From Actinomycetota bacterium (lineage in GTDB: Bacteria; Actinomycetota; Actinomycetes; S36-B12; UBA10799), in contig JAUPKM010000007.1 in the NCBI GenBank assembly GCA_030837445.1, positions 1-33,258 of the forward strand: a stretch of 33,258 nt of DNA, read 5' to 3'. Position 1 is the stretch's first letter. Each line of letters begins with the position of its first letter. Below are positions 309 to 33,258 of the stretch, one piece after another. The translations under genes were made by a program, and so were the position numbers. Under the pieces are notes generated by a model, which did not search any database, was not told where the DNA came from, and worked only from the letters and a program-made list of their open reading frames with translations.

Positions 309-761
309 CTACGGATGCGCCTGCTCGTACTTGCGCAGGCCCGCCATCGCCTGTCCGCGGATCTTGTTCTTGATGATCGGCGACCACCCCAGCAGCAGGC
401 CGGCGGGACCAAGGGCCTGCCGCGACCAGGCCCAGAGGCCGAACGAGTCGCGGTGGGCGGAGATGAGGCCGTCGCGGAGAACGAAGCTGGCCTGGATGTC
501 GTTGACCACGCGACGGCCGGTGCCGCTGAACGTATAGGTCGCCACCCAGTGCGCCGAGTGGTCGGTCACTGAGTCGAAGTTGACGCTGAAGTCCTTCGCC
601 GAGGAGCAGAGCATCCGCCACATATTCCCCACCTGAGAGCCGTGCAGGTCCGTGAAGACGGGGTCGGAGAAGGTGGCGTCGGGGGTGTAGCAGGCGGCCA
701 TGGCGTCGCCGTCCAGCGATTGGAAGGCGGTGTACAACCGAGTGATGACGTCAGAACTCAT
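309..761 (-). CDS. SnoaL-like / NTF2-family protein
   Basis: LYTAFQSLDGDAMAACYTPDATFSDPVF...MWRML...HRDSF is typical of NTF2/SnoaL-fold proteins. TAGAGT lies 6 nt before the ATG (leaderless). Confidence 0.85.
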   Translation of the reverse strand: MSSDVITRLYTAFQSLDGDAMAACYTPDATFSDPVFTDLHGSQVGNMWRMLCSSAKDFSVNFDSVTDHSAHWVATYTFSGTGRRVVNDIQASFVLRDGLISAHRDSFGLWAWSRQALGPAGLLLGWSPIIKNKIRGQAMAGLRKYEQAHP

Positions 762-851
762 CCCACGACTCTAGGTGGGCAGGCCCCCGTGTCTCGCGTC
801 ACACCGGCCGTTTCAGGTCTGAGCGCAGAGCCCAATGGGTACCATCCCGCT

Positions 852-1088
852 ATGACACAAGTTCGGGTCGAACCCGTAGACAAGTCCTGGACGACGACGA
901 AGGTCGTCGCGGTGATCGTCGCCATCCTCACTGTCGGCTACATGCTCCCCTGGGCCATCGCCGCTGTTCGCGATGTGCCGCACTGGTCCGTTTTCTGGGT
1001 GAACCTGCTGCTCGGTTGGACCGTGATCGGCTGGATCGTGGCGCTGATCATGTCGCTACGTGCGCAGCGGCAGGTCATCGTAGGCTGA
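852..1088 (+). CDS. Superinfection immunity (T4 Imm-like) family small membrane protein, 78 aa
   Basis: YMLPWAIAAVR...VFWVNLLLGWTVIGWIVALIMS matches the Y.lP..iA..r...NlllGWT.iGW..AL family pattern. Start taken at ATG852, with TACCAT 6 nt upstream. Confidence 0.8.
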   Translation: MTQVRVEPVDKSWTTTKVVAVIVAILTVGYMLPWAIAAVRDVPHWSVFWVNLLLGWTVIGWIVALIMSLRAQRQVIVG

Positions 1089-1097
1089 CGCGGGCGG

Positions 1098-1289
1098 TCA
1101 GTCCTCGATCCGCAAGGCTCCTGTCGGACAGGCCAATGCGGCCTGGGTCGCCTGGCTGCGGCTCGATTCCGGCGGTGTCGGGTCCAGCAGGGTGAGGAAG
1201 CCGTCAGCGCCGATCTCGAAGAGTTCCGGTGCGACGGCTTCGCACATCCCCAGCGACGCGCAGCTCGATTCGTCGTGCACGATCCTCAT
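1098..1289 (-). CDS. Ferredoxin (3Fe-4S type)
   Basis: CASLGMC...ACPTGAL is a CxxXxxC...CP motif. ATGA overlap with the P450 stop codon. Confidence 0.9.
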   Translation of the reverse strand: MRIVHDESSCASLGMCEAVAPELFEIGADGFLTLLDPTPPESSRSQATQAALACPTGALRIED

Positions 1290-2566
1290 GTGCGAACCTC
1301 CGGTGTGAAGCGTGCGGTCATCTTGTTGACGCCGTGGAAGAAGTTGCCGTTACTGTAGGTCGGTTCGCCGACCACGGCGATATCGGGTAGCCGGGTGAGT
1401 AGCTCAGTGAAGATCGCCGCGAGTTGACGGCGGGCCAGTTGGTTGCCCAGGCAGTGATGGATGCCGCCGCCTCCGAACGACACATGTCGGTTGGGAGAGC
1501 GGGACAGGTTGAACTCCTCCGGAGAGTCGAAGACCTCCGTGTCCCAGTTGGCCGAGGCATAGAACATCACCACTTTGTCGCCGGCTGTGATCAGCTGGCC
1601 GCCAAGTTCACAATCCCTGGCTGCGGTGCGGCGAAAGGTCATGATTGGAGTCGCCCACCGGACGATCTCCTCGACTGCTACGGGCATCCGCGCGGCGAGG
1701 TCCTCCGCGAGCCACGCTCGCTGATCGGGGTAGTCGGTCAATGCCTTCATCCCGTGACTGGTGCTCTGCCGGGTGGTGTCGTTGCCGGCGATCATCAGCA
1801 GGCCGAAGAAGGAGATGATCTCGTCGTCGGTCAGCTTCTCGCCATCGACCTCTGCCTGTACCAGGGCGGTGAGTAGGTCGTCCTGTGGCTCATCTCGCCG
1901 GGCGGCGGTGAGTTCACTGGCCATCGTGCGCATCGTCACGACCGCTTCGAACAGCCTGGTCATCGGGTCCGCGCCCTGCATCAGATCCTCGTCCCGCCAG
2001 CCGCCGGCGAACTGTGCCTCATGCGCCACGGTGCGGCGATATTCCTCCGGGATTCCGACCATGTCGCAGATATTGTCCATCGGTACCAGGGCCGATACCT
2101 CGGCGACGAAGTCGACCTCGCCGCGATCGGCGATGTCATCCACGATTCGCTTCGCGTTGGCATCGATTCGATCGGAGATGCGCGCCATCTGTCGGGGAGT
2201 GAAGGCAGAGACGAGCAGTCGCCTGACTTTGCTGTGTCGTGGCGGATCCATGGCGATGAAACCCTGGCCGGCGTCGAGAAGTTCCTGTGGCATCGACTCG
2301 AACACGATGCCCTCGCCGGAAAGGAAGTCCTGGTGTCGCTTGGTCACCTCCACCAGATCCGCGTGCCGCACGACTGCCCAGAAACCCTGGTCGTTGGGGT
2401 CGACGAACAGGCCGTTCGCCACGGGTCGGTGCCAGGACACGGGGCGTTCGGCGCGAAGCTCCGCGAACACGCGTTCCCGGTCGGCGGCCGTACCCGACCA
2501 GAACTCCAAGGTCGACAGATCGGCCGGGTCGTAAGGGCGTTGGCTGCGGAGCAGGGTGGAAGTCAC
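1286..2566 (-). CDS. Cytochrome P450 (resembles CYP124/125-type lipid hydroxylases)
   Basis: I-helix AGNDTT, EIVR (ExxR) and heme motif FGGGGIHHCLG. Start GTG2566 follows a GGAGGA RBS; the upstream extension to 2929 overlaps tetR and is unlikely to be real. Confidence 0.92.
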   Translation of the reverse strand: MTSTLLRSQRPYDPADLSTLEFWSGTAADRERVFAELRAERPVSWHRPVANGLFVDPNDQGFWAVVRHADLVEVTKRHQDFLSGEGIVFESMPQELLDAGQGFIAMDPPRHSKVRRLLVSAFTPRQMARISDRIDANAKRIVDDIADRGEVDFVAEVSALVPMDNICDMVGIPEEYRRTVAHEAQFAGGWRDEDLMQGADPMTRLFEAVVTMRTMASELTAARRDEPQDDLLTALVQAEVDGEKLTDDEIISFFGLLMIAGNDTTRQSTSHGMKALTDYPDQRAWLAEDLAARMPVAVEEIVRWATPIMTFRRTAARDCELGGQLITAGDKVVMFYASANWDTEVFDSPEEFNLSRSPNRHVSFGGGGIHHCLGNQLARRQLAAIFTELLTRLPDIAVVGEPTYSNGNFFHGVNKMTARFTPEVRT

Positions 2567-2599
2567 ACGTTCCTCCGAGGGTAGGTGTGCCAAGGCTCC

Positions 2600-2653
2600 G
2601 ACATATTGATAGCACTTGTCAAGCAGACGCAACATTGCAGTTTTGACTGTCAA
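2600..2653. promoter_or_regulatory. Candidate TetR operator(s) in the divergent P450/tetR promoter region
   Basis: GACA-N13-TGTC at 2600-2620 and the palindrome TTGAC-T-GTCAA at 2643-2653, in an AT-richer spacer. Confidence 0.5.
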
Positions 2654-2677
2654 CCGATGCCACGGCAGACTGGGGCG

Positions 2678-3289
2678 ATGACGACCGCTGCGGAGATCCG
2701 CGCCGACTCCAGGCTCCGCCTGCGCGAAGCCATGTTGGCGGCCACGCATGACGAGGCTGTCACCGGCGGTTGGAGCTCGGTTCGGATGGGCGCCGTCGCG
2801 TCCCGGGTGGGAGTCAGTCGACAGACGCTGCATGCCGAATTCGGGACGAAGGAGGCGCTCGGTCAGGCTCTCGTGCTGCGGGAGGTGGAACTGTTCCTGG
2901 CCGGTGTCGTGTCTGCGCTGGCTCGGCACCCGGACGACCTGTCTGAGGGAATCTTCGAGGCGGTCACCTTCACCCTGCAGGTCACAGAAGTAAACCCGTT
3001 GCTACAGACCATCCTGGCCAGCACCTCAGGTGCGGGTGACGACACCTTGCTTCCATTGCTGACAAGTCGCGGTCAGCCTCTGCTGCAGCGGTCCTCGGAC
3101 CTCATATCCACGTGGGTGATCCGAGCACAGCCAGGGCTCGACCCGATGGTGGTCACCGACGTGATCGACAGCGTGGTGCGTCTCGTGGTCAGCCATGCTG
3201 TTGCGCCAGGCGGACCGCCCGCCACGGTCGGTCGAAGGATCGCCCGGCTGGCAGTCGCCGGGTTGGGCCCGACGTCGTTGTCGGGCTAG
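2678..3289 (+). CDS. TetR/AcrR family regulator (AlkX/Rv3249c-like)
   Basis: HTH region GWSSVRMGAVASRVGVSRQTLHAEFGTKEALGQAL. Divergent from the P450. CAGACT lies 6 nt before ATG2678. Confidence 0.88.
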   Translation: MTTAAEIRADSRLRLREAMLAATHDEAVTGGWSSVRMGAVASRVGVSRQTLHAEFGTKEALGQALVLREVELFLAGVVSALARHPDDLSEGIFEAVTFTLQVTEVNPLLQTILASTSGAGDDTLLPLLTSRGQPLLQRSSDLISTWVIRAQPGLDPMVVTDVIDSVVRLVVSHAVAPGGPPATVGRRIARLAVAGLGPTSLSG

Positions 3290-3372
3290 GTCGCACTCGG
3301 CCCGACGACCGCCACTCGACCAACCACCCACCGTCAACCCGCACTGCGGGCTCGCACCTGCGCGCTCGCTGG

Positions 3373-29313: not shown

Positions 29314-29386
29314 TGGGCCCGGCCGGACTCGAACCGACGACCTTCCCGGTGTAAGCGGGGCGCGCTACCAGCTGCGCTACGGGCCC
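29314..29386 (-). tRNA. tRNA-Val (anticodon TAC), CCA not encoded
   Basis: GGGCCCG TA GCGC AGCTGGTA GCGC G CCCCG CT TAC AC CGGGA AGGTC GTCGG TTCGAGT CCGGC CGGGCCC A forms a cloverleaf. Confidence 0.95.
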
Positions 29387-29461: not shown

Positions 29462-30685
29462 ATGACTGCGCCGATCTCCGCTGGGACGCCTGCGGCCGGT
29501 CCGCCTGCCGCCGACCCGCCTGCCCCCGGCCCACCGGTCACAGTGCGGGACGTGGTGGCCGCGATGGAACGGCTCTACCCCTCTGCGCTGGCTGAAGACT
29601 GGGACGCCGTCGGTCTCGTCTGCGGACGTCCGGAGCGGCCAGTGAAGCGCGTTCTGGTGGCTGTCGACCCGGTCGCTTCGGTGGTAGCCGAGGCGATCGG
29701 CTGGGGCGCGGACCTGCTGATCACCCACCACCCGCTGCTACTGACTGGGGTGCACTCGGTGTCTGCGACCGACCCCAAGGGAGAGGTGATCACAGACCTG
29801 ATCGAAGCCCGCTGCGCGCTGTTGAGTGCGCACACCAACGCCGACGCCGCTCGCCCGGGCGTATCGGATGCGTTGGCCGAGCTGCTGGGATTGGTGGACC
29901 TTCGGCCGTTGGCCTCGGCGGAGCAGTGCTCGGATCCGACCGAAGCGATCGTGGTCTACGTTCCTGACACTCACACCGGGCCGATGATCGATGCGATGGC
30001 CGCGGCTGGCGCGGGCCGGATCGCCGACTACACGCGCTGCGCGTTCACGGTTTCCGGCACTGGCACCTTCGAGGTGCCAGCCGACGGTGACCCCTGGCTG
30101 GGACGGCCGGGGGAACGGTCCGAGGTGGTCGAACAACGAGTCGAGATGTCGGTGCGGCGGTCGGTTCGGGACCGCGCACTCGCGGCCATGTTGACCGTGC
30201 ATCCCTACGAGCAGCCGTCCTACTTCGTGCTTCCGACCACCGCCGCGCCCGCCGTCACCGGCATCGGTCGGGTCGGCCGTCTCCGGACACCCCGAACGCT
30301 GGCCGAATTCGGCTCGGACGTGGCGGCCGCCTTGCCCGCGACCGAGCATGGAGTCCGGGTTGCCGGCGACCCGCACCGGATCGTGTCGACGGTCGCAGTG
30401 TGCGGCGGCGCGGGCGACTCGCTGCTCCCTGCAGCTGCCGGCGCCGACGTCTTCGTGACAGCCGATCTTCGACACCATCGCGCCGACGAGCACCTCGGTC
30501 AGGGTGGAGCGGCGCTGGTCGATGTCGCACACTGGGCAAGTGAATGGCCCTGGTGTCGGCAGGTGGCCGATCTGCTGCCCGCTGAACTGTCGACGCCGGA
30601 TAGCGTGACCGTGCGGGTGTCCGAGATCGTGACGGACCCCTGGACCGCCCACCTGCGCAGTGCCCAGCCGAGGAGAGTTCTGTGA
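29462..30685 (+). CDS. Nif3-like dinuclear metal centre hexameric protein (with PII-like insertion)
   Basis: AEDWDAVGL, ITHHPL, AHTNAD, HPYEQP, TADLRHH and HWASE. Confidence 0.93.
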   Translation: MTAPISAGTPAAGPPAADPPAPGPPVTVRDVVAAMERLYPSALAEDWDAVGLVCGRPERPVKRVLVAVDPVASVVAEAIGWGADLLITHHPLLLTGVHSVSATDPKGEVITDLIEARCALLSAHTNADAARPGVSDALAELLGLVDLRPLASAEQCSDPTEAIVVYVPDTHTGPMIDAMAAAGAGRIADYTRCAFTVSGTGTFEVPADGDPWLGRPGERSEVVEQRVEMSVRRSVRDRALAAMLTVHPYEQPSYFVLPTTAAPAVTGIGRVGRLRTPRTLAEFGSDVAAALPATEHGVRVAGDPHRIVSTVAVCGGAGDSLLPAAAGADVFVTADLRHHRADEHLGQGGAALVDVAHWASEWPWCRQVADLLPAELSTPDSVTVRVSEIVTDPWTAHLRSAQPRRVL

Positions 30686-31422
30686 AGGCCGAACCAACCA
30701 GCCAGTTGATCCTGTTGGAGGTCCAGCACTTGGATCTGGATATCGAACGGAATCGACATCGGGCCCGAACGCTGCCGGAGACGACCCTGGTCGCGGAACT
30801 CACCGCGCGGGATACCGCGCTGCGCGACCACACCACGGCGGCGGCGACCCGCGCCTCGGATTTGGCGCGAGAGGTGCGCAAGGCGGAGGCCGATGTCGCC
30901 CAGGTGCGCGCCCGGGCCGACCGAGACCAGAGCTTGCTGAACTCCGGCCAAGTGACCTCGTCGAAGCAGTTGGCCGATCTCGAGCACGAGGTTGCCACCC
31001 TGGCGAGACGCCAGGCAGCCCTGGAGGATGACGAACTAGTGGCGATGGAGGCGCTCGAAACTGCGGAGGCCGAGCACTCCGAGCTCGTCGACCAGACAGA
31101 GCGCGTGCGAGGTGAGCTGGCCGCCGCAGTCACCGCCCGTGATGAGGCGATGGCACTCCTTGATGCCGAGTTCGCTGAGTTACGACAGGTGCGTGACTCA
31201 ACCGCGGCACCGGTACCGACCGAACTACTCGAGCTTTACGCCCGGATTCGGGCGGACAACGGCACCGGCGCCGCGATGGTCCGGCGGGGTCGTTGCGAGG
31301 CCTGCCAACTGGACCTGCCGCGGGGAGACCTCGATGAGATCGCGGCCGCGGCCCCGGACGAAGTCGTTCGCTGCCCGGAGTGCCGCAGCATCCTGATCCG
31401 CACCTCGGAGTCCGGATTGTGA
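30682..31422 (+). CDS. Coiled-coil protein with C4 zinc ribbon (Rv2229c-like)
   Basis: Long coiled coil followed by CEAC...CPEC. GTGA overlap with the Nif3 gene. Confidence 0.92.
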   Translation: MKAEPTSQLILLEVQHLDLDIERNRHRARTLPETTLVAELTARDTALRDHTTAAATRASDLAREVRKAEADVAQVRARADRDQSLLNSGQVTSSKQLADLEHEVATLARRQAALEDDELVAMEALETAEAEHSELVDQTERVRGELAAAVTARDEAMALLDAEFAELRQVRDSTAAPVPTELLELYARIRADNGTGAAMVRRGRCEACQLDLPRGDLDEIAAAAPDEVVRCPECRSILIRTSESGL

Positions 31423-31892
31423 GCTCCCGCGATCCCGCGATGAAGTACGTGCTCGAGGCGGACGGCGGATCCCGCGGGAACCCAGGACCGGCGGCATACG
31501 GCACGGTCATCCTGCGGGCAGGCGTGGTCGTGCGTGAGCTTGCAGCAGTCATCGGCGTGGCCACCAACAATGTGGCCGAATACCGCGGACTCTTGGCCGG
31601 ACTGGAATGGATCGCGATGGAGACCGAGCGATCGGGGGAGGCGCTGGCCGCTCCACTCGTCGAGGCGCGGTTGGATTCGAAGCTCGTGGTGGAGCAGATG
31701 TCGGGGCGCTGGCGGATCAAACACCCAGACATGAAGGAGCTTGCCCTCCAGGCACGGCGTGCCTACCCACCGGACAATGTTCGCTACCAGTGGGTCCCGC
31801 GGGAGCAGAACAAACGAGCGGACGCACTGGTCAACGAGGTTCTCGATGCCCAGGCCGCCGGTGTCATCCGGGCCGTCGATCGTGGCAGCTGA
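31419..31892 (+). CDS. Ribonuclease HI
   Basis: EADGGSRGNPG, TNNVAEYRG, DSKLVVEQM and WVPREQNKRADALVN. Start is GTG31419 (overlaps the upstream stop) or ATG31440. Confidence 0.92.
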   Translation: MSSRDPAMKYVLEADGGSRGNPGPAAYGTVILRAGVVVRELAAVIGVATNNVAEYRGLLAGLEWIAMETERSGEALAAPLVEARLDSKLVVEQMSGRWRIKHPDMKELALQARRAYPPDNVRYQWVPREQNKRADALVNEVLDAQAAGVIRAVDRGS

Positions 31893-32496
31893 GCCACTAC
31901 GTCTGATCGTCGTCCGGCACGGCGCCACGGCGTTGACGGGCAAGGTCTACAACGGATGTGGAGTCGGTGCGGCCGATCCCGCGTTGAGCGAACCCAGTCG
32001 CCGCGAGCTGCTCGGGCTGGACTGCCCGCCTGCGGTGGACCGGATCGCGGCGGCTACCTCGCCGGCCCGGCGTGCGCGTCAGACCATCGATGAATTGGTT
32101 GCGAACTGGCGCCTCGAACCGCGTGGTGATCCCGAGATCGTCGAGGCGTTGGCCGAAGTTGATTTCGGCGAGTGGGAGGGGCGGTCGGCGGCAAAGGTCA
32201 GGGCTGAGGACCCCCAGCGTTGGCGGGACTGGCTATCGGACCCGACCGTGTCGCCACCAAAAGGTTCGGCCCTCGCCGAGCGAGCCGATGCTCTGCGTGG
32301 GTACCTCAGCCGGTTGCAGTCGTCACCGCTGCGGACCTGGCTGCTGGTCGGTCATGCCAGCACGGTCAGGTTGGTGGTTGCGCAGGTGCTGAGGCTGCCA
32401 CTGACCGAAGTTCAGCGGATCAGTGTCCGCCCAGGAGGCTGGTGCGATGTCCGAATTTGGGCCGACGGGGGTTCCTGCCTGGATCGGTTGGGTTGA
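31882..32496 (+). CDS. Histidine phosphatase family protein (CobC-like)
   Basis: VRHGAT, SPARRARQT, EVDFGEWEG and LVGH. Start inferred at GTG31882. Confidence 0.82.
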   Translation: MAAEPLRLIVVRHGATALTGKVYNGCGVGAADPALSEPSRRELLGLDCPPAVDRIAAATSPARRARQTIDELVANWRLEPRGDPEIVEALAEVDFGEWEGRSAAKVRAEDPQRWRDWLSDPTVSPPKGSALAERADALRGYLSRLQSSPLRTWLLVGHASTVRLVVAQVLRLPLTEVQRISVRPGGWCDVRIWADGGSCLDRLG

Positions 32497-32562
32497 TCGT
32501 CCGTTCGGATGACAGCACGGTCGCCCGGAGGTGCCGAATTGTGATGGTCGACCGATCTGGCC

Positions 32563-32591
32563 TTGTCTCGTGCTGCCCACGCGAGCACACT
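32563..32591 (+). promoter_or_regulatory. Putative sigma-70-type promoter for the candidate ncRNA
   Basis: TTGTCT-N17-CACACT; predicted start site about G32598. Confidence 0.55.
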
Positions 32592-32597
32592 CTGGGG

Positions 32598-32790
32598 GTC
32601 TGAACAGTGCGATTCGTCGCACCAGCGAATCGACTAGGGATCGGGAGTAGCGCAACTGGTAGCCGAACAATCCTGATGCGGGCCCGAACTCGTACGTCGC
32701 ATCCGTGGCCGACGACGAGACCCCGAGATACTGATCAGACGACGAATCCCCCTCCATAGCCAAGAATGGAGGGGGATTCGTCCTGTTTGT
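32598..32790 (+). ncRNA. Candidate structured small RNA, family not recognised
   Basis: Promoter, 5'/3' closing helix (32598-32609 with 32729-32740), four internal hairpins and an immediately following terminator. No convincing ORF. Confidence 0.5.
32741..32790 (+). terminator. Intrinsic terminator-like hairpin
   Basis: GACGAATCCCCCTCCAT-N8-ATGGAGGGGGATTCGTC is a perfect 17-bp stem, followed by CTGTTTGT. Confidence 0.75.
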
Positions 32791-32883
32791 GGGGCCTTCA
32801 CCGACCCGTTCGTCTTGCTCACAGGATGCCCAGTGGGGCGAGCAGGTAGCCGTGAATTGAGTCACACGGGTATCGTCGGTGCA

Positions 32884-33256
32884 GACAAGTCGGCCGGGCG
32901 GCCGCGGTCGGCTTTCGCCGGTCGAGGAAAGTCCGGACTCCAGAGGGCGTAGGTGGTGGGTAACGCCCACCCGGGGTGACCCGCGGGACAGTGCCACAGA
33001 AAACAAACCGCCTCGTGAACTGCGAGGTAAGGGTGAAACGGTGGTGTAAGAGACCACCAGCGCTGCAGGTGACTGCGGCGGCTAGGTAAACCCCACCTGG
33101 AGCAAGATCAAAAGGGTCGCGAGAGCGGCCTGCGCAGACGAGCGGCCCGCTCGATGTCTGCGGGTAGATCGCATGAGGGCGGTGGCAACACCGCTCCCAG
33201 ATGGATGGTCGCCGCCGCGTGAGCGGCACAGAATCCGGCTTACAGGCCGGCTTGTC
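32884..33256 (+). ncRNA. rnpB: RNase P RNA, bacterial type A
   Basis: GAGGAAAGTCCGGACTC, CAGTGCCACAGAAA, GGGTGAAACGGTGGTGTAAGAGACCACC and ACAGAATCCGGCTTA. P1 pairs GACAAGTCGGCC with GGCCGGCTTGTC. -10-like TATCGT at 32871-32876. Confidence 0.97.
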
Positions 33257-33258
33257 AC

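Follow-up and report, generated by a model that had tools for sequence, protein, structure and literature searches.

A candidate stand-alone structured small RNA gene between an RNase H/CobC operon and rnpB in one genus of uncultured Actinomycetes

The stretch of DNA analyzed here, referred to as the window, comprises 33,258 nucleotides of an Actinomycetota assembly (GCA_030837445.1, contig JAUPKM010000007.1). In the spacer that precedes rnpB, the gene for RNase P RNA, positions 32598-32790 of the plus strand most probably (at a probability of roughly 0.75) constitute a stand-alone, expressed gene for a structured small RNA (sRNA) that matches no known family and is confined to one genus of uncultured Actinomycetes. 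A first-pass annotation of the window had proposed a self-contained, structured non-coding RNA of about 190 nt without a known family at this place. This proposal was borne out by the silence of Rfam, by compensatory base changes in relatives, by the single copy in the genome and by the presence of the sequence in RNA libraries. The properties of a generic stand-alone sRNA are found together, namely a promoter of its own (putatively used), an end hairpin, the lack of an open reading frame (ORF), compensatory changes and presence in RNA. The use of the promoter, the exact ends and the strand of the RNA are predictions. Transcription would start at or near G32598 from a putative sigma-A-type promoter (TTGTCT, 17 nt, CACACT), and the RNA would fold into a multi-branch core that is closed by helix P1 and exposes two motifs, GCACCA on hairpin P2 and CAUCCGUGGC on hairpin P5. 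A very stable end hairpin, termed T, with a stem resembling a Shine-Dalgarno/anti-Shine-Dalgarno duplex (CCCCCUCC/GGAGGGGG) and a conserved 8-nt loop, would terminate transcription and/or protect the 3' end. All strings named in the first-pass annotation (the hexamers, the closing stem, the end hairpin, four inner stems and the pair ACCAG/CTGGT) were found at the positions given for them. The parts of the candidate are:

32563-32568, plus strand: -35-like hexamer TTGTCT, present as a string, with a putative promoter role
32586-32591, plus strand: -10-like hexamer CACACT (nAnnnT), after a 17-nt spacer that follows TTGTCT
32598-32790, plus strand: predicted small RNA with predicted exact ends, in which a core of 143 nt is followed by the 42-nt end hairpin and a short tail
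32598-32607, plus strand: 5' strand of P1, GUCUGAACAG (GTCTGAACAG), facing 32731-32740
32610-32632, plus strand: P2 hairpin with an 8-bp stem, which includes CGATTCG/CGAATCG, and the 7-nt loop CGCACCA
32662-32688, plus strand: conserved block GCCGAACAAUCCUGAUGCGGGCCCGAA, near-invariant between the short and the long form
32689-32719, plus strand: P5 hairpin with outer stem CUCGU/ACGAG, inner stem CGUCG/CGACG and loop CAUCCGUGGC
32731-32740, plus strand: 3' strand of P1, CUGAUCAGAC (CTGATCAGAC), seen in both the fold and the alignment
32741-32757/32766-32782, plus strand: end hairpin T, a perfect 17-bp stem with the core CCCCCUCCAU/AUGGAGGGGG and the loop AGCCAAGA at 32758-32765

Comparison by blastn of this region of the source assembly (G000) with 40 relatives returned real matches from G001 (94% identical, same layout) and from G002 and G003 (3' half, 78-80%). 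A match in G004 was dismissed as chance, as it lies within a helicase-like coding sequence (CDS) when the sequence is read by eye. G002 and G003 carry a long form of approximately 310 nt, which shares with the window the promoter-like hexamers, the first ten and last ten core bases, the hairpin loops and the end hairpin, and contains three inserted blocks of about 14, 54 and 38 nt. A pattern scan of metagenomes yielded three loci, which represent a third variant of the short form (L097), a G003-like copy (L098) and a chance match inside a CDS (L099). A covariance model of the 3' domain (R1, 122 positions) matched the end hairpin in G005, G007 and G008 with E-values from 1.5e-7 to 7e-5, and its first search also gave weak matches (E 0.004-0.9). 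All 39 genomes of the family were searched with this model, and no match at E<=0.001 was obtained in 28 genomes of nine other genera. The variant of G006 was recognizable by eye. The RNA is thereby present in 8 of 11 species of one genus, with bodies of approximately 110, 190 or 310 nt that gain and lose blocks of 14-54 nt, and with mini forms in G007 and G008 that are devoid of the YCCGUGG loop. Across the genus, the 5' end stays invariant, as do the block GCCGAACAAUCCUGAUGCGG(R)CCCGA, the loop with YCCGUGG, and the end hairpin including its own loop. When 185,579 species genomes were scanned for the hairpin pattern, 21 loci were found; seven of them, in metagenome-assembled genomes of Actinomycetes/Actinomycetota, correspond to five congeners (G001, G002, G003, G007, G008) and the other 14 are located in unrelated phyla, with approximately 17 chance matches estimated.

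The first-pass annotation had read TTGTCT-N17-CACACT as the promoter of the RNA, and the conserved spacing of these hexamers in relatives supports that part of the claim. A hexamer starting with TTG is located 17-18 nt 5' of the -10-like hexamer in G000, G001, L097, G002, G003, G005, G007 and G008, and was not seen in G006. All nine sequences that were read contain a -10-like hexamer of the form nAnnnT (CACACT in the window, G001, G002, G003 and G008; GAAACT in L097; CATGAT in G005; GAAAGT in G006; AAGACT in G007). In seven of the nine (G000-G003, L097, G005 and G006), GUCUG starts 5-7 nt after this hexamer. The spacer and discriminator bases drift while the hexamers hold their spacing, which is the pattern that would be expected of a promoter in use. 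The promoter reading is therefore based on the conserved positions of the hexamers and not on a match to a consensus. At the other end of the RNA, the hairpin with a T-rich tail that had been noted before is a perfect 17-bp stem, was picked up independently by a terminator scan and recurs in eight species, whereas the tail itself is weak in the window (CTGTTTGT) and not conserved in relatives.

Folding of 32598-32790 (193 nt) gave -87.1 kcal/mol and a z-score of -5.3, with 0 of 200 shuffled sequences as good. In the predicted fold, the closing stem encloses a branched middle with one hairpin before and one after it, the 17-bp end hairpin comes last, and both the minimum free energy (MFE) structure and the centroid are multi-branched. 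The reverse strand folds nearly as well (z -4.7). Conservation of this structure was analyzed in an alignment (A2) of the six sequences with a full core, which represent about three lineages, and helices P1, P2, P5 and T were counted. The proportion of cells able to pair was 95.0% of 241, as against 28-50% when the partners were slid by 1-3 columns. Changes on both sides were found in five pairs (shuffle mean 2.2, reached by 5 of 500 shuffles), and the covariation score was 0.155 versus 0.100, reached by 0 of 500 shuffles. Compensatory changes are thus seen in P2, P5 and the end hairpin, as the first-pass annotation would have it for a structured RNA.

The individual helices behave differently. 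The closing stem P1, which had been pointed out from the window alone, recurs without variation in relatives, and its opening GUCUG is also found at the start of the G005 and G006 forms. P2 is replaced in the long form (G002, G003 and L098) by a different 5-bp stem, UCCGC/GCGGA, around the loop GGCACCA, and one pair is changed on both sides. For P5, five different stems close the loop bearing YCCGUGG: CUCGU-CGUCG in G000/G001, CUCGC-UGUCG in L097, a distinct stem in G002/G003, GGCGCA in G006 and CGCCUCACGC in G005 (the last read by eye), all with CCGUGG in the loop. A compensated C-G pair is found in L097 where the window has U-A, and G001 holds the intermediate C.A. The sequence GCGGRCC(C)GA also occurs just 5' of P5 in G005 and G006 when these are read by eye. 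In the end hairpin, six different outer stems surround the loop (A/U)GCC(A/G)AGA across eight species and the apical pairs switch from A-U/U-A to G-C/C-G, with both outer and apical changes being compensatory. The four inner stems suggested by the first-pass annotation fared unevenly. CGATTCG/CGAATCG (P2) and CGTCG/CGACG (inner P5) recur, whereas ATCGGGA/TCCTGAT is absent from the MFE fold and loses its 5' partner in the long form, and GCGGG/CTCGT clashes with the covarying outer P5 stem CTCGT/ACGAG. The exact contact of a kissing loop once suspected between ACCAG and CTGGT is not conserved, and the hairpin GTGCGA-TTCG-TCGCAC, proposed as a competitor of the first stem, does exist in the short form but is found only there.

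Evidence for a transcript was obtained from public sequencing runs. DNA of the genus is present in runs labelled as wastewater, bioreactor, biofilm and freshwater metagenomes. Among the 24 runs listed, 14 DNA runs contain 62-83% of the sampled words and four metatranscriptome runs contain 20-29%. The contigs of these four metatranscriptome runs (X15-X18; X15 and X16 belong to one study, X17 to another) were placed on positions 31300-33258. In X15-X17, that is in three of four runs and two studies, contigs cover 32607-32681, 32653-32723 and 32630-32728 with depths of 309-3371 and 0-3 mismatches, and two variants are present, one window-like and the other G001-like. No contig was found over 31960-32553 or 32752-32817 in any of the four runs, and the upstream genes are bare except for one contig with a depth of 7.3 and 27 mismatches in 299 nt. 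The rnpB contigs specific to the organism (0-2 mismatches) have depths of 110, 640, 44 and 54.5, so the depth of the candidate contigs is at least that of the organism's own rnpB contigs, a comparison that with one figure per contig cannot rank genes. Since the interior of the candidate is present in RNA libraries from which its coding neighbor is absent, carry-over of DNA would not give this pattern. The metatranscriptome contigs on 32607-32728 thus agree with the transcript that had been predicted, and leave its ends and strand to the sequence signals.

A transcript at this place could also be the structured 3' untranslated region of the RNase H/CobC mRNA, ending at the large hairpin and accumulating as a stable fragment. 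The element is always located directly downstream of CobC on the same strand, the contigs cannot show a 5' end and the generic promoter scan was negative, all of which would suit such a fragment. Even so, none of the four runs contains a contig over the 3' part of CobC and the spacer (31960-32553), at interior depths of 309-3371; the hexamers keep a fixed spacing before the 5' GUCUG as the intervening bases drift; and a small hairpin directly follows the CobC stop codon. Such an origin is accordingly considered quite unlikely, and the reading as a separate sRNA gene is retained.

The genomic surroundings in relatives bear on two further explanations. The unit is positioned directly 3' of RNase H/CobC and on the same strand in G000, G001, G002, G003, G005, G006, G007, G008 and contig L097. 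On its other side, rnpB follows on the same strand 80-130 nt downstream in G000, G001, G006, G007 and G008, is convergent with the unit in G002 and, across a contig break, inferred to be so in G003, and in G005 (L103, contig C82, 9376-12415) is 9.2 kb away on the same strand, with a phosphate-transporter-like gene after the hairpin. The placement immediately beside rnpB, which had been emphasized for the window, therefore holds there, but the constant neighbor is the upstream RNase H/CobC gene. The same-strand position 80-130 nt ahead of rnpB in the window and four congeners would be compatible with an upstream leader or second promoter of the rnpB precursor that is removed by processing. However, as the unit is kept where rnpB is inverted (G002/G003) or 9.2 kb off (G005), it does not depend on the orientation of rnpB and is not a leader of that gene. 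Furthermore, no contig spans 32752-32817, a separate -10-like TATCGT/TATCCT is recognizable by eye just before rnpB in G000 and G001, and in congeners that lack the element, CobC is immediately followed by rnpB. A leader function is hence rated as very unlikely.

The second explanation is functionless transcription of a decayed element of mobile or tRNA origin, or of a scar left by recombination at a hot spot of rearrangement. It would account for the rearrangement between species of the DNA just downstream (inverted rnpB, 9-kb insertion, contig break) and for a body in which blocks of 14-54 nt come and go. Within the core, the 17 nt at 32647-32663 also match the D-arm region of a tRNA gene (29314-29386, minus strand) at 16 positions, with an E-value of 7.2, which is chance level. 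Yet blastn in G000 returned only the element itself, ARAGORN detected no tRNA or transfer-messenger RNA (tmRNA) gene in 32401-32900, no match of the Rfam tRNA clan appeared at E<=10, and no transposase or integrase is present in the flanks examined; tRNA-likeness was for these reasons rejected. The compensatory changes and the conserved loops show selection on RNA structure. The hairpin pattern occurs once in G000, once in G001 and three times in both G002 and G003, in every case at this locus, and is missing from G004. A single copy means that the element is not a repeat of the miniature inverted-repeat transposable element (MITE) or repetitive extragenic palindrome (REP) type, for which many copies per genome would be characteristic, and dispersed copies, a concern of the first-pass annotation, are thereby excluded. 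Only a slight chance is left to a decayed element. Two observations concern the downstream side of the unit. In G005, GCCCCCUCCG is present once more, unpaired, ahead of the end hairpin, where it might compete for the 3' arm of that hairpin. In G002 (L011/L056, contig C281) and G003 (L010 and L057/L073, contigs C10 and C92), two extra hairpins, CCUCCAU-CACCAAGA-GUGGAGG, are situated between the RNA and the convergent rnpB; they are of the same type as the end hairpin of the RNA, another GC-rich hairpin lies beside them, and the G003 assembly breaks exactly there.

The absence of a known family had been claimed from the window, and the Rfam searches agreed with it. For the window, no family was reported for the region at the gathering score or at E<=10, the only matches being two of plant-microRNA type on the hairpin and a 21-nt viral pseudoknot match; at the loci of 16 relatives no family was found at E<=0.5. 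Overall, these searches returned only rnpB, one tRNA and meaningless microRNA-type hairpin matches. A riboswitch or other leader acting in cis had been discounted beforehand for want of a downstream coding gene, and indeed the downstream neighbor varies between species (rnpB in same-strand or convergent orientation, or else a phosphate-transporter gene) and no riboswitch model matched. In the published full texts covered (including PMC9130861, PMC11077062 and PMC8628891), no sRNA is described between rnhA/cobC and rnpB; the supplementary tables could list one in cultured species.

Coding potential was also considered. ORFs of 50 amino acids (plus strand) and of 62 and 67 amino acids (minus strand) run across the region and an ATG is present in the end hairpin, which would speak for a small protein. 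No ORF is common to the short and long forms, with G002 and G003 also differing from each other, so that neither frame nor sequence is kept; the insertions are not multiples of three, and the ATG of the hairpin is GCG in G005, G007 and G008. The earlier dismissal of the 50-amino-acid ORF as non-coding is in line with these results, and the probability of an encoded protein is negligible.

The RNA could further be the 6S/Ms1-type RNA of this lineage that binds RNA polymerase. In favor of this are its abundance in RNA libraries and the closing stem formed by its two ends. In addition, the 6S model finds nothing in four of four genomes of the genus, and Ms1 sequences are hard to recognize according to PMC9130861. 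For 6S (RF00013), no match was found in 32400-32900 at E<=10 and none in the four genus genomes at E<=1, with a model that also misses a Corynebacterium control and thus has limited reach in the phylum. A 6S RNA is rod-like, opens into a large bubble at its center and keeps to a length of about 180-200 nt, whereas the candidate has a multi-branch fold and a length of approximately 110-310 nt, and it was not found in three congeners. For Ms1 (RF02566), no match was obtained at the locus even at E<=10. Ms1 is syntenic with the gene for a HAD-IB hydrolase (PMC9130861), but the flanks of the candidate are RNase H/CobC and rnpB, and the HAD-IB gene of G000 lies on another contig (C17). Sub-threshold Ms1 matches adjoin the HAD-IB gene in G000 (38.9 bits, E 5e-7) and G009 (37.1 bits, E 2e-6), relative to a cut-off of 162 bits. 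On the other side of that gene, a 6C RNA match of 44.6-52.6 bits was detected, which exceeds the 47-bit cut-off in three of four genomes. The HAD-IB loci with 6C/Ms1 matches are:

L117 (G000, contig C17): 1295-1361 and 2310-2446
L118 (G009): 1144-1331 and 2253-2317
L115 and L116: further loci of this kind

Because Ms1 and 6C matches flank the HAD-IB gene, the lineage probably has its own Ms1 elsewhere, and it is extremely improbable that the candidate is the 6S/Ms1-type RNA.

Several observations weigh against an expressed, structured sRNA gene. Without its end hairpin, the 143-nt core has an ordinary folding energy (z -1.86, 9 of 200 shuffles as good), which means that most of the energy signal comes from the end hairpin and that thermodynamics alone supports only this hairpin. 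The full core is limited to six sequences from about three lineages, whose kinship inflates the pair-change numbers, and the count of both-side changes was reached in 5 of 500 shuffles. P1 is invariant in six of six aligned sequences and hence provides no covariation for or against it. RNAalifold recovered P1, P2 and T, but replaced P5 by GAUGCGG/UCGCAUC and GCCG/UGGC, which consist of invariant bases only; the helix GAUGCGG/UCGCAUC is not visible in G006 when the sequence is read by eye, and a switch between the P5 fold and this modelled alternative is possible. Pairs are held in 229 of 241 cells for the plus strand versus 220 of 241 for the minus strand, so that structure barely tells the strand and the strand call rests on the promoter-like signals. 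Here, the generic sigma-70 scan scored no promoter at the candidate, and to that extent the promoter claim of the first-pass annotation was not supported. The U-tract 3' of the end hairpin is poor in seven of eight species, which makes intrinsic termination uncertain. Regarding the RNA libraries, X18 contains rnpB contigs and none on the candidate, an uncovered part that proves nothing. The contigs in general show neither ends, strand nor level; they do not reach the first 9 nt, the end hairpin or the P1 strand on the 3' side; and two contigs carry 22-23 further end letters that do not fit the window. With the R1 search, the RNA was not found in G004, G009 and G010, which are 95-96% complete. 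In these three genomes, the CobC ORF ends 0-20 nt before rnpB and there is no room for the element; as it was not found in these three of 11 congeners, the RNA is dispensable. Finally, no target or partner was identified, within the bounds of a quick test of pairing with RNase P RNA and a test for long antisense matches.

Concerning function, it is tentatively suggested that the sRNA gene encodes a trans-acting regulator, in which exposed and invariant C/U-rich segments (AUCCUGAUG, CAUCCGUGG) may pair with the purine-rich ribosome-binding regions of mRNAs. Duplex energies with the neighboring RNase P RNA were no better than those of shuffled sequences (-110.2 versus a mean of -109.9 in G000; -142.8 versus -148.4 in G003). 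In a short blastn search for antisense targets in G000, outside any systematic target prediction, the best match was 16 nt (E 0.12) inside a CDS and on the wrong strand, which amounts to chance. A rather doubtful alternative is a protein-docking or sponge RNA, whose YCCGUGG and GCCRAGA loops would bind a protein and whose body would serve as a scaffold, the possibly nucleic-acid-binding zinc-ribbon protein of the adjacent operon being a candidate partner. Around the unchanged loops, stems and the entire body have been exchanged, G002 and G003 have the two extra hairpins of the same type with loop CACCAAGA just downstream, contig depth in RNA libraries is at least that of the organism's own rnpB contigs, as for housekeeping RNAs, and the upstream operon encodes Nif3-like, zinc-ribbon and RNase H proteins (as named mainly from their translations). 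On the other hand, no partner is known, YCCGUGG is missing from the mini forms of G007 and G008, and three of 11 congeners keep the operon but yielded no match to the RNA. In a broader and unlikely version, the variable body of 55 to 270 nt would be mere scaffold, the two loops would together form a bipartite platform on which a protein, the ribosome or RNase P docks, and the spacer would be a family-wide cradle of abundant, fast-evolving structured RNAs; if true, this would define a new class of RNA-protein particle tied to the adjacent RNA-metabolism operon.

The window closes with a complete rnpB (bacterial type A RNase P RNA, 302.9 bits in Rfam) at 32886-33258 on the plus strand, and the contig end (33258) coincides with the last base of the rnpB match. 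The source assembly G000 consists of 4.5 Mb in 677 contigs and is 83.6% complete with 6.7% contamination. Upstream of the candidate, a tRNA gene (29314-29386, minus strand, 65.5 bits) is followed by:

29462-30685, plus strand: Nif3-like ORF
30682-31422, plus strand: zinc-ribbon protein ORF
31380-31892, plus strand: ORF with an RNase H domain
31741-32496, plus strand: CobC/phosphatase-like ORF
32497-32512, plus strand: small hairpin UCGUCC-GUUC-GGAUGA directly 3' of the CobC stop codon, assigned to the upstream gene

The ORFs were named by reading their translations and from their conservation in relatives, and partly after the mycobacterial operon Rv2230c-Rv2228c. RNase H and CobC are fused in one protein in mycobacteria. 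Here, the RNase H and CobC-like ORFs are in different frames and overlap by about 150 nt; the identical arrangement in G001 points to two coupled genes and less to a frameshift of the assembly. The spacer from the CobC stop codon to rnpB measures 389 nt and holds the candidate RNA. A small hairpin around CCGUUCGG is found directly 3' of the RNase H/CobC stop codon in several genera, with CCGUUCGG-type motifs after the stop codon also in L097, G006 (L043) and G022 (L049). It is predicted to mark the separate unit of the upstream gene. Together with the -10-like TATCGT just before rnpB, the hairpin after CobC fits an organization into three separate units.

In other genera of the family, spacers of 299-652 nt are found at the same place, and in each of them a strong hairpin with one C-rich and one G-rich arm forms the end, about 100 nt ahead of rnpB. 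The stem of this hairpin is CCCCUCC/GGAGGGG-like in G016, G017 and G012, and the end hairpin in the window likewise has the stem CCCCUCC/GGAGGGG. The spacer between the RNase H gene and rnpB in G018, G020 and G022 is 545-588 nt long and contains a conserved, structured-looking block of 260 nt with eight compensated pairs in three sequences. This block, which has no consistent ORF and no Rfam match, probably represents another structured RNA, distinct from the candidate and as yet unnamed, at the equivalent locus. It is located at:

L038: 1184-1446
L049: 1985-2245, minus strand
L050: 1982-2243, minus strand

An nhmmer search with the G018/G020/G022 block against all spacers gave no cross-match, and the bodies of different genera are accordingly not demonstrated to be homologous.

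To our knowledge, no RNA biology exists for this genus. The candidate adds to it a small RNA backed by comparative genomics and RNA libraries, one that is clearly suited to become a new Rfam family. The candidate also exemplifies an sRNA that keeps its promoter, 5' end and two hairpin loops while the body changes by blocks of 14-54 nt, and it draws attention to the spacer between rnhA/cobC and rnpB for RNA searches in other Actinobacteria. With a range of one genus and no assigned function, the RNA alone opens no long-standing question.

Among known systems, Y RNAs of the YrlA type, which bind Ro/Rsr, are similar in that an end-to-end stem closes a branched module and in faint tRNA-like strings. 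The candidate differs by the lack of an Rfam match and by the distribution of the TROVE (Ro) gene, which was found in one of four RNA-bearing genomes searched (G000) and not in G001, G003 and G008, nor in G009; a Ro/Y RNA was on these grounds rejected. The TROVE gene of G000 is located on contig C447 (6968-7837, minus strand), which may be foreign given the 4.5 Mb and 6.7% contamination of this assembly compared with 2.6-3.2 Mb in most relatives. With 6S RNA (RF00013), the candidate shares its length of about 190 nt in the window, a closing stem and abundance in RNA libraries, and it departs from 6S RNA in a branched fold without a central bubble, a length that is not conserved and the missing model match. 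6C RNA (RF01066) and other actinobacterial hairpin-loop sRNAs are likewise small RNAs with C-rich conserved hairpin loops and covarying stems, and the likeness includes probably acting without Hfq. Unlike these, the candidate has the loops YCCGUGG and GCCRAGA, is two to four times longer, possesses a closing stem and gives no model match, the true 6C RNA being encoded elsewhere. Compared with Ms1 (RF02566), the constant neighbor is RNase H/CobC instead of HAD-IB, no model match was obtained, the length ranges from 110 to 310 nt and the RNA was not found in three of 11 congeners; nevertheless, both are actinobacterial stand-alone sRNAs with a promoter of their own, which is putative for the candidate, and both are abundant, have ends that pair, drift fast and can be traced by a constant neighbor.

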